A stretch of 63,908 bases of DNA, counting the filler, from an uncultured Methanosarcinales archaeon (GTDB lineage: Archaea; Nanobdellota; Nanobdellia; Woesearchaeales; JACPBV01): assembly GCA_964492935.1 (NCBI GenBank). It is 3 parts of 3 records of this genome, joined end to end, with 100 filler letters (N's around TTAATTAATTAA, not from the genome) between each part and the next. Parts side by side here need not be neighbours in the genome. Positions count along the whole stretch, not along the records: positions 26,878 to 52,281 come from CAZBLF010000015.1; 2 more parts are not named here. The stretch is one strand, 5' to 3'. The translations under genes were made by a program, and so were the position numbers. Below are positions 45,187 to 45,369 of this stretch, in pieces. Every line of letters begins with the position of its first letter. Position 1 is the first letter of the stretch. The notes under the pieces are model-generated. The model did not search any database, had not been told where the DNA came from, and was given only the letters and a program-made list of their open reading frames with translations.

Positions 45187-45273
45187 AGCCCCCGGGGAGA
45201 GTTGCACTCCCGACCTGCGCTTTGCTCGATTGCGATTACGAGAGCGCCGCTATAGCTACTAAGCCACGGAGGC
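45187..45273 (-). tRNA. tRNA-Thr(CGU) with 14-nt intron (45223-45236)
   Basis: GCCTCCG acceptor, GCGCT-CT-CGT-A|ATCGCAATCGAGCA|A-AGCGC, CTCG/CGAG central helix (BHL-type). Confidence 0.92.
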
Positions 45274-45369
45274 AGGGTAAGGTGTTTGCTCGTGCTATTG
45301 CTTCACAATAGCACTTAGCCTCTTTGGGTCCTAGCCTTTGTAAAGGCTAGCTACCTAAGCCACGGAGGC
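45274..45369 (-). repeat. Duplicated 5' end of tRNA-Thr(CGU) fused to the 35-nt hairpin element (copy B) plus a second hairpin
   Basis: 45348-45369 repeats 45253-45273; 45319-45353 is identical to 9324-9358; GTGCTATTG-CTTCA-CAATAGCAC at 45292-45314. Confidence 0.9.

Follow-up and report, generated by a model that had tools for sequence, protein, structure and literature searches.

The locus described here lies on the minus strand at positions 45187 to 45369 of a 63,908-nucleotide stretch (the window) of the genome assembly GCA_964492935.1, from an uncultured archaeon of the order Woesearchaeales. It consists of an intact gene for tRNA-Thr(CGU) preceded by a partial copy of its own 5' end and by a short, hairpin-bearing element, termed copy B. 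A second element, copy A, precedes the gene for tRNA-Thr(UGU), and the coordinates of both are collected in Table 1. The source genome (G000) measures 1.15 Mb and is 84.8% complete; positions 1 to 26777 of the window are its contig C14, and copy B is on contig C15. The parts of copy B, as the original prediction had read them on the minus strand, match the sequence as written, and the start of the copy A fragment was corrected to 9374. The fragment of copy B is identical to positions 1 to 21 of the tRNA apart from a single additional G after position 15. All of copy B precedes tRNA position 1 and is thus outside the mature tRNA, unlike the intron copies found elsewhere. The core of 35 nucleotides (nt) described as invariant between the two copies occurred exactly twice in the 1.15-Mb genome, and GCCTTTACAAAGGC, with up to two mismatches, gave four matches (two sites, both strands) against 0.33 expected, a number reached in none of 100 shuffles. 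The tail of copy A had been interpreted as a deletion derivative of the second hairpin, and we agree.

Table 1. Coordinates of the element copies and associated tRNA-Thr features in the window
Feature	Position	Strand	Sequence	Remark
TATA box, copy B	45406-45399	-	TTTATAAA	original tRNA promoter; 29 nt between box and fragment
Direct repeat 1 (fragment), 22 nt	45369-45348	-	GCCTCCGTGGCTTAGGTAGCTA	dead near-copy of tRNA-Thr(CGU) positions 1-21
Hairpin 1 ('pal')	45350-45331	-	CTAGCCTTTACAAAGGCTAG	constant left end of element
Unpaired conserved core	45330-45319	-	GACCCAAAGAGG, then CTAA	invariant or near-invariant columns across family
Hairpin 2	45314-45292	-	GTGCTATTG-TGAAG-CAATAGCAC	homologous to second hairpin of family
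Element tail, 18 nt	45291-45274	-	GAGCAAACACCTTACCCT	homologous to tails of G001 C46 and C35
Intact tRNA-Thr(CGU)	45273-45187	-		ARAGORN with introns; G000:C15 18310-18396
Direct repeat 2	45273-45253	-		first 21 nt of tRNA-Thr(CGU)
Intron of tRNA-Thr(CGU), 14 nt, position 38	45236-45223	-		ARAGORN intron mode
TATA box, copy A	9408-9401	-
Copy A, whole	9374-9312	-		adjoins tRNA-Thr(UGU) upstream; fragment-hairpin-core layout as in copy B
Copy A fragment	9374-9353	-
Copy A hairpin 1	9355-9336	-
Copy A core	9335-9324	-
Copy A hairpin 2 remnant, 12 nt	9323-9312	-		without tail
tRNA-Thr(UGU)	9311-9239	-

The arrangement, which the original prediction had made dependent on read support, recurred in independent metagenome contigs, and an assembly artefact was ruled out for this reason. 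Contigs from other runs spanned both the tRNA-element and the element-promoter junctions with zero differences. Nine metagenome loci carried the core pattern, four resembling copy B and two resembling copy A over the printed stretch. The stretch was present in DNA runs of 17 studies, one of which is possibly the source, and three RNA runs of shared samples contained next to none of its sequence words. By eye, the 14-nt intron of tRNA-Thr(CGU) forms a canonical bulge-helix-bulge, with CUCG/CGAG between the bulges UAA and CAA. The gene was missed by ARAGORN in bacterial mode and by Rfam at the gathering score.

The covariance-model scan proposed with the original prediction uncovered a multi-copy family. 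The model (R1), which comprises hairpin 1, the core and hairpin 2, matched copy B over C15 18413-18473. Members of the family begin with a hairpin of the form CTA-NNN-TTT..AAA-NNN-TAG, followed by a core resembling that of copy B, a 7-bp hairpin and often a third hairpin, which in the longer copies has a loop of 17 to 19 nt. The left end is constant and the right end variable, no open reading frame (ORF) is present, and the length ranges from about 38 to 250 nt. Among 66 neighbouring ORFs scanned, no gene was common to the loci. Because the third hairpin of the family is absent from it, copy B was classed as a truncated copy. When 401 genomes of the order were scanned with a 21-nt core pattern allowing up to three mismatches, 23 matches were found outside G000, compared with 10 for the reversed-pattern control. 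On reading, 14 of the 23 loci, in eight genomes, shared the hairpin and core, and nine were chance matches.

The distribution of the family was patchy. R1 matches at E<=0.1 numbered 19 in G181, 14 in G084, 8 in G260, 7 in G199, 5 in G336, 4 in G079 and 2 each in G109 and G220; the 4 in G000 and 5 in its sister species G001 include reverse-strand matches on the palindrome. At E<=1e-4 with strict filters, 19 of 151 genomes in an order-wide sample and 18 of 151 in a phylum-wide sample were positive; all 17 other positives of the phylum-wide sample, which may lack other orders, belong to the same order. Statements on G220 and G125 rest on genomes flagged as unpublished. Within G000, a relaxed regular expression for hairpin plus core recovered copies A and B and one chance site, and a long form on contig C19 was found by the core pattern only. 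Rfam yielded only tRNAs in the window at the gathering score and, at E<=1, only tRNA, 5S and two sub-threshold chance matches at 13 loci with long copies; viral contigs gave no match to the core pattern. No description of the element was found in full-text searches of the literature, where supplements of the nearest papers might list similar repeats. Collectively, these data bear out the part of the original prediction that saw a non-autonomous, palindrome-bearing element rather than a chance repeat, and the object at tRNA-Thr(CGU) is a truncated copy belonging to a family, apparently undescribed, of small hairpin elements that insert at stable-RNA genes.

The genomic contexts of 57 model matches were read by eye. 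Approximately 27 copies abutted, interrupted or repeated a tRNA gene, a 5S rRNA gene or a box-C-like target, as did nine of nine further copies in G000, G001, L040, L056 and L068. The remaining copies, approximately 30, had no recognisable RNA gene beside them, and some were flanked by perfect 29-nt repeats (G074:C52 and G107:C19). The specific targeting of tRNA-Thr that had been proposed is contradicted by these contexts, as tRNA genes for Arg, Gly, Val, Tyr, Ser, Met, Gln, Glu and Leu carry the module too, and so do a 5S rRNA gene, a box-C-like target and non-RNA sites. Copies were located directly 3' of a tRNA on the same strand at Tyr (G109, G260), Ser (G079), a tRNA in G181:C6 and tRNAi-Met (G154, G336, G220, G079, G047), and beyond some of these a second copy of the last 13 to 24 nt of the tRNA was present (G109; G079 twice). 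Copies 5' of a tRNA on the same strand followed the first 14 to 22 nt of that tRNA (Thr five times, Arg in G181, Gln in G061, Tyr in G074). In antisense copies outside the gene, the hairpin was preceded by the gene end repeated as its reverse complement; these were found at the 3' end (G001 C60, G000 C19, metagenome locus L040, G260:C142 and G220:C35), at the 3' end in the T-loop (G125, twice) and at the 5' end of tRNA-Ser (G181:C16, twice). The 3' end of tRNA-Val in G260:C38 held two nested antisense insertions with repeats of 26 and 35 nt. At the 3' end of a 5S rRNA gene, confirmed by Rfam (G260:C92), the repeat was 16 nt, and at G084:C229 the 24-nt target contains the box-C-like ATGATGA, from which we guess that it may be a C/D RNA gene.

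Direct repeats of the target usually flank the copies and vary from 12 to 35 nt (13 to 26 and 14 to 29 nt in two sets read). Their inner boundaries fall in or near tRNA loops (D-loop at 14-22, anticodon at 37-39, variable loop/T-stem at ~48 and T-loop at ~57-59), and the outer boundary was 0 to 4 nt from the gene terminus in most copies read, with 7 and 13 nt in two. It had also been suggested that the left arm of a longer palindrome gave way to the tRNA 5' end. The DNA to the left of the hairpin was derived from the target in all members examined, and CCTCTTTGGGTC was present on that side in none of the copies; this suggestion was therefore abandoned.

Orthologous sites were compared between G000 and G001, and the further copies and empty sites for which the original prediction had called were found. 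At tRNA-Thr(CGU) both species are filled, with the 14-nt intron in G000 and without it in G001 (contig C46), where the fragment is shortened to GCCTCCATGG and hairpin 2 reads GTACTCTTAC-TTCG-GTAAGTGTAC. The tRNA-Thr(UGU) site is filled in G000 by copy A and empty in G001 (C21), the same promoter flank there abutting position 1. Conversely, tRNA-Thr(GGU) is empty in G000 (C3), with two introns, and filled in G001 (C35), in which hairpin 1 reads CTATCC...GGATAG, a compensatory change. Each empty site holds exactly one copy of the repeat. The fragments of G001 carry A7 and G5, which break the acceptor stem, as well as deletions that shorten them to 10 to 13 nt. Thus, the fragment is not a working exon. 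As a separate observation, the inserts of tRNA-Thr(GGU) in G000 (C3:52185-52315) measure ~29 and 31 nt and neither is present in G001, so that the tRNA intron content of the two species differs at both Thr(CGU) and Thr(GGU).

The claim that each duplicate derives from its local tRNA held for the 5' part of the fragment and failed for the 3' part. Fragment and tRNA are identical over positions 1 to 15 in copy B and G181 and over positions 1 to 12 in copy A, and all differences are 3' of this point. The 5' part tracks the local gene (GCCTCCG versus GCCTCTG; TGGCTT versus TAGCA). By contrast, an extra purine, in AG-R-TAGCTA, is common to copy A, copy B and G181, a genome of another family whose own tRNA reads AGTAGCCA. 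This segment does not match the local tRNAs, and the 3' portion of the fragment therefore travels with the element. Such a pattern would be expected if a form of the element bearing a short tRNA-like segment recombined within the first 12 to 15 nt of the gene; alternatively, the true duplication may be 15 nt, with (R)TAGCTA being a D-loop-like end of the element itself. A one-step spread from B to A within G000 does not fit, since the copy A fragment is of the TAGCA...AGATAGCTA type, although its hairpin 2 remnant resembles that of copy B.

RNAalifold predicted both hairpins from nine long copies, with compensatory changes at 8 of 15 pairs. Among 44 model-aligned copies (41 distinct), 96.9% of cells were paired, a fraction inflated by the fitting of this alignment to the model, and 13 of 15 pairs had changes on both sides. 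Compensatory changes affected six of eight pairs in hairpin 1 and all seven in hairpin 2 among the 41 distinct copies. The observed pairing was reached in none of 500 shuffles, and slid controls gave 35 to 47%. An RNA helix read from one strand should tolerate G-U and not A-C. Here G-U or U-G occupied seven cells and A-C or C-A also seven, and hairpin 1 had no G-U. Since G-U was not commoner than A-C, the constraint looks strand-symmetric, as in a DNA hairpin or cruciform, although the numbers are small. The apical loop of hairpin 1 tolerates insertions of 47 to 61 nt (G000 C19:3949-4027, G001 C60, G199:C81), which argues against a dimeric protein site on duplex DNA. The lack of a G-U excess thus points to a hairpin constraint on DNA rather than RNA.

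The module was also found within tRNA genes. In the tRNA-Arg(UCG) gene of G084:C200, a 140-nt intron at the canonical position starts with the module, whose hairpin begins 2 nt downstream of the 5' splice site; at the junctions, CUUC pairs with GAAG to form a bulge-helix-bulge when drawn by hand. In G336:C60, copies of the module occupy the D-loop and position 37/38, a third insert is present in the T-loop, and in silico removal of the three inserts led ARAGORN to call a tRNA-Arg(UCG) of 71 to 74 nt. Around the G084 gene (locus L116, G084:C200:433-3492), a 14-nt copy of the tRNA-Arg(UCG) 5' end lies ~52 nt upstream and a 9- to 10-nt copy of its 3' end 16 nt downstream, which with the intron makes three separate events at one gene.

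The occurrence of one module both as repeat-flanked insertions and as tRNA introns is the main interest of the family, as it bears on the question of how archaeal tRNA genes gain introns, fragments and split forms. Of introns in Asgard tRNAs, the abstract of a 2026 preprint states that "how they arrive remains open". Our tentative suggestion, which we would not call probable, is that the family is a live example of archaeal tRNA intron gain, in which the element inserts into single-stranded loops or ends of heavily transcribed stable-RNA genes, possibly by means of a Y1 enzyme. On this suggestion, insertions near a gene end would survive through the duplicated end, and deeper ones would survive as introns if a bulge-helix-bulge forms there and not otherwise; the module would be seen at successive stages as leader, trailer, dead fragment and intron; and the RAYT-like Y1 HUH protein, the only transposase type recognisable in the phylum, might act on DNA hairpins in a manner unlike that of IS200/IS605. 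Because the family is recognisable, occurs both as repeat-flanked insertion and as intron, and offers filled and empty sites, the question of intron gain becomes testable with metagenomes and simple biochemistry. In practical terms, genuine tRNA genes are masked by the element and spurious fragments arise from it, as illustrated by the failure of standard finders at tRNA-Thr(CGU).

Taking the family as a whole, we consider that the 'leader' of tRNA-Thr(CGU) is probably a truncated copy of a small (about 60 to 250 nt), ORF-less, non-autonomous mobile DNA element, which would make the element selfish DNA. Its insertions, of either orientation, would mostly affect highly transcribed genes for stable RNAs, at their ends and loops, and now and then other sites, with the 12 to 35 nt between the insertion point and the gene terminus being duplicated so that one intact gene copy survives. 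Copies inside a tRNA would persist as introns if the site allows a bulge-helix-bulge. In the case of tRNA-Thr(CGU), entry would have been at the D-loop, with duplication of positions 1-15/21. We rank as the most likely route the integration of a small excised form carrying a copy of the gene end, with a crossover in the first 12 to 15 nt mediated by an integrase or by homology; target-primed copying with long, variable target-site duplications would rank second. Movement appears to have been recent, given the filled and empty sister sites, the perfect long repeats, the nested insertions and a pair of elements ~95% identical over ~75 nt beside clearly diverged tRNAi-Met genes of two families (G154 and G336).

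Several observations weigh against a mobile element. It could not be linked to any transposase, integrase or reverse transcriptase. The 81 neighbouring ORFs examined (15 + 66) were housekeeping genes, or tyrosine integrases beside tRNA genes; the integrase genes near R1 copies all adjoin tRNA genes, so that this link is confounded. A single-copy Y1 gene (IS200/RAYT-like) was present in each of the five carriers checked first, and this link was rejected when the gene proved no commoner in R1-positive (8 of 19) than in R1-negative genomes (48 of 132); BLAST of Y1 loci against R1 loci in five genomes gave no match. The domain RVT_1 was found in two of five carriers (G181 and G084) and not in G260, G199 or the 84.8% complete G000, and the TnpB zinc-ribbon domain in none of five genomes. 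An excised form with a gene end predicts an element-derived tRNA 5' part, yet this part is isoacceptor-specific in copies A and B, and the clustering of outer repeat boundaries at the gene terminus, for the most part 0 to 2 nt past it, is not predicted by simple staggered-cut duplication. Neither an empty allele of copy B within the population nor an excised form was seen in the DNA contigs of four runs, the only joint listed across these contigs being the shorter form of copy A. The pairing fraction is inflated, as stated above, and the presence of a copy behind tRNAi-Met in five genomes of five families could reflect a conserved host function.

The Y1 gene of G000 (C16:1666-2010) encodes a 142-amino-acid HUH transposase with an HIH motif and YxxxQ and is single copy. 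It is followed by a hairpin, CCCCGCAC-TAAA-GTGCGGGG, and then by AGGAGGTCAC; the same downstream motif follows the homolog in G181. TnpB was not found with it.

A host function would be served if the module were a leader or a small RNA, either a processing or stability signal or a released product, that is transcribed along with the tRNA and cut out by the splicing endonuclease, RNase P or tRNase Z, which we regard as unlikely. Approximately 19 of ~30 tRNA-linked copies are co-oriented with their gene as leader, trailer or intron, and in at least seven genomes the hairpin starts exactly at the tRNA 3' end, including tRNAi-Met in five families. The strong covariation is also what a functional RNA would show, and tolerance of apical insertions in hairpin 1 is typical of RNA stems. 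However, ~11 copies are antisense to their gene, a carrier genome holds 2 to 19 copies while 132 of the 151 sampled genomes have no match, copies A and B are differently truncated, and no Rfam family matches. The equal counts of G-U and A-C cells (seven each), with none in hairpin 1, are also at odds with a functional RNA, and the flips of presence between sister species, the antisense copies, the decayed fragments of G001 and the lack of a G-U excess together weaken the shared regulatory leader offered as an alternative in the original prediction.

The same loci could be debris of integrative elements, with the repeats being attL/attR remnants of a large virus or plasmid, mostly deleted since, and the module an arm beside attP; we think this quite unlikely. 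In the copies read, partial tRNA copies end at the gene terminus in an att-like manner, a feature that Williams in 2002 is said to have described as the signature of tRNA-targeting integrases, and tyrosine integrase genes lie beside module-bearing tRNAs in G181 (C6, C16, C18) and G260 (C142). Against this, no module copy has an integrase between its two repeats, and around the tRNAs next to an integrase no second repeat was found within 14 to 20 kb. The same 50 to 250 nt would have had to survive dozens of independent deletions, and such an origin does not fit the nested insertions, the intron positions or the non-tRNA site at which a 61-nt element is flanked by perfect 29-nt repeats.

The position of the promoter bears on how tRNA-Thr(CGU) would be expressed. 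TATA-like boxes end 24 to 26 nt before +1 in six other tRNA genes (counted by eye), and those of copies A and B end 26 and 29 nt before their fragments. Since the old promoter faces the dead fragment, tRNA-Thr(CGU) would have to be transcribed through fragment and element. It would thus be read through as a 95-nt 5' leader to be removed by RNase P, an enzyme whose archaeal RNA was found in G000 (C10:16827-17218, 117 bits against a cut-off of 84) and which can presumably remove a leader of this length. The consequence for this single locus would be modest, with one tRNA being made from a 95-nt leader. The GCCUC:GAGGC stem predicted to close the leader does form when the leader is folded by itself (minimum-energy structure, -35.7 kcal/mol, z -3.69). 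It is not conserved, since GAGG is part of the family consensus AAAGARG irrespective of which repeat flanks it; G001 C35 has lost the pairing, and only 3 bp of it are left in G181. Folding of the entire precursor gives a minimum-energy structure with the fragment paired to the 3' acceptor strand, which might carry a misfolding cost.

Two further ideas about the leader were rejected. Leaderless transcription without RNase P, which would force use of the fragment, was discarded because the RNase P RNA is present in G000 and a Pop5-like protein in a relative. Hairpin 1 as the tRNA promoter was discarded since the distance of its TATA-like centre, TTTACAAA, from +1 is 30 nt in copy A and 67 nt in copy B, and the covarying hairpin 2 would coincide with the predicted start or follow it. 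That the upstream fragment is a real 5' exon, the rest up to downstream position 21 being a large D-loop intron, is very improbable: the promoter lies at the usual distance from the fragment and not from the tRNA, the copy A fragment would give A13-U22 where the tRNA has U-U, TAGCTA is self-complementary and the precursor fold pairs the fragment with the acceptor strand, but no bulge-helix-bulge could be drawn by hand in copy B, helices flanking TAGCTA:TAGCTA are absent, the fragments of G001 carry the stem-breaking A7 and G5 and are shortened, nothing is missing from the downstream gene, the genome has an RNase P RNA and the empty sites encode the same tRNA.

The TATA box of copy B is itself palindromic, lies 21 nt from the ATG (45428, plus strand) of a divergent K+ channel gene and may serve both directions. 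The ORF of this gene carries Pfam Ion_trans_2, and the divergent arrangement is also kept in G001 C46.

As a mobile element, the family was compared with known systems. For the 'transposition' of tRNA introns in Thermoproteales (Fujishima et al. 2010), a review (PMC4090602) holds that gain is thought to occur at the DNA level by a mechanism that is unknown. In contrast to what is recounted there, the module described here is found also outside the mature tRNA, in both orientations and with duplicated gene ends, as well as at a 5S rRNA gene and non-RNA sites; its architecture of two or three hairpins is conserved, and its hosts belong to a DPANN order. In Caldiarchaeum, the account of Sugahara et al. 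2012 (PMC3293823) has a tRNA-Thr 5' fragment followed by a 1.8-kb recombinase element and then the tRNA. Shared with that case are mobile DNA between a tRNA-Thr fragment and the intact tRNA, heterogeneity among close genomes and a link to intron gain; unlike the 1.8-kb element, the present one measures 38 to 250 nt, encodes nothing and forms a multi-genome family. Elements that target tRNA genes for integration share the att-like partial tRNA copy. In the present family, no integrase ORF lies between the repeats, and no parent element was found.

Like REP/REPIN-RAYT and IS200/IS605-derived elements, the family consists of short, ORF-less hairpin repeats with Watson-Crick covariation on DNA. 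Those systems have no target duplication, a conserved tetranucleotide or target and a much higher copy number, whereas the copies described here have long, variable repeats, no conserved word before the hairpin, and neither co-occurrence nor sequence sharing with Y1. According to a preprint (10.64898/2026.05.13.725050), K07491 is the only transposase KO (KEGG Orthology entry) with strict hits in 256 Nanobdellota proteomes. The family resembles miniature inverted-repeat transposable elements in being small, non-autonomous, multi-copy and structured. It differs in having no terminal inverted repeats, as the palindromic hairpin is confined to one end (in 11 copies flanked by repeats, the right ends had nothing in common with the left hairpin or with each other), and in its variable repeats of 12 to 35 nt in place of short, fixed duplications. 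Retroposition of the short interspersed element type shares one constant and one variable or truncated end, long variable duplications and an association with small-RNA genes. In contrast to such elements, the present ones have no A-rich tail, no internal promoter and a DNA-like hairpin constraint; RVT_1 was found in G181 and G084 and not in G000, G260 or G199.

Longer and composite forms of the element were also observed. In G000, the form at C19:3846-4050 lies antisense after tRNA-Gly(GCC), with hairpin 1 split by a 61-nt insert that has two inner hairpins, followed by a copy of the last 11 nt of tRNA-Gly and 13 nt of its flank; at the orthologous site in G001 (C60), a further unit with a short hairpin 1 is present in tandem. 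In G199 (locus L076, C58:8500-15142), two inverted repeats of ~230 nt, each with an element, surround 3.7 kb that contain carbamoyltransferase and SGNH hydrolase genes and no transposase, and 60 to 90 nt outside the hairpins are also repeated, so that the target at this locus is itself repeated DNA. Three loci of G084 (L097, L101 and L104, on C92, C180 and C191) have 35 nt more in common to the left of the hairpin (…CGACGAGCGTTATGAGGGGATGCCCC), which represent either a repeated target or a longer subfamily.

Other tRNA genes of G000 showed unusual features. At C3:47850-48440, the 3' part of tRNA-Ser(UGA) is repeated twice in tandem after the gene as dead copies. The T-loop of each copy is interrupted by a hairpin-rich insert of 88 nt, which begins CTACAAACC...GGTTTGTA and was not detected by R1. 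Both tRNA-Thr genes of the window have a non-canonical T-loop, UGCAACU versus UUCRAAU, and a D-loop, AGUAGCUA, without the usual GG; the Thr genes of G001 and G181 are alike in this. Finally, positions 1439 to 1531 of the window (plus strand) hold an intron-containing tRNA to which ARAGORN in bacterial mode assigned the anticodon 'cggt' and no name; intron mode gave SeC(tca) with a 19-nt intron, and Rfam scored it as tRNA at 45.8 bits with a 22-nt insertion.

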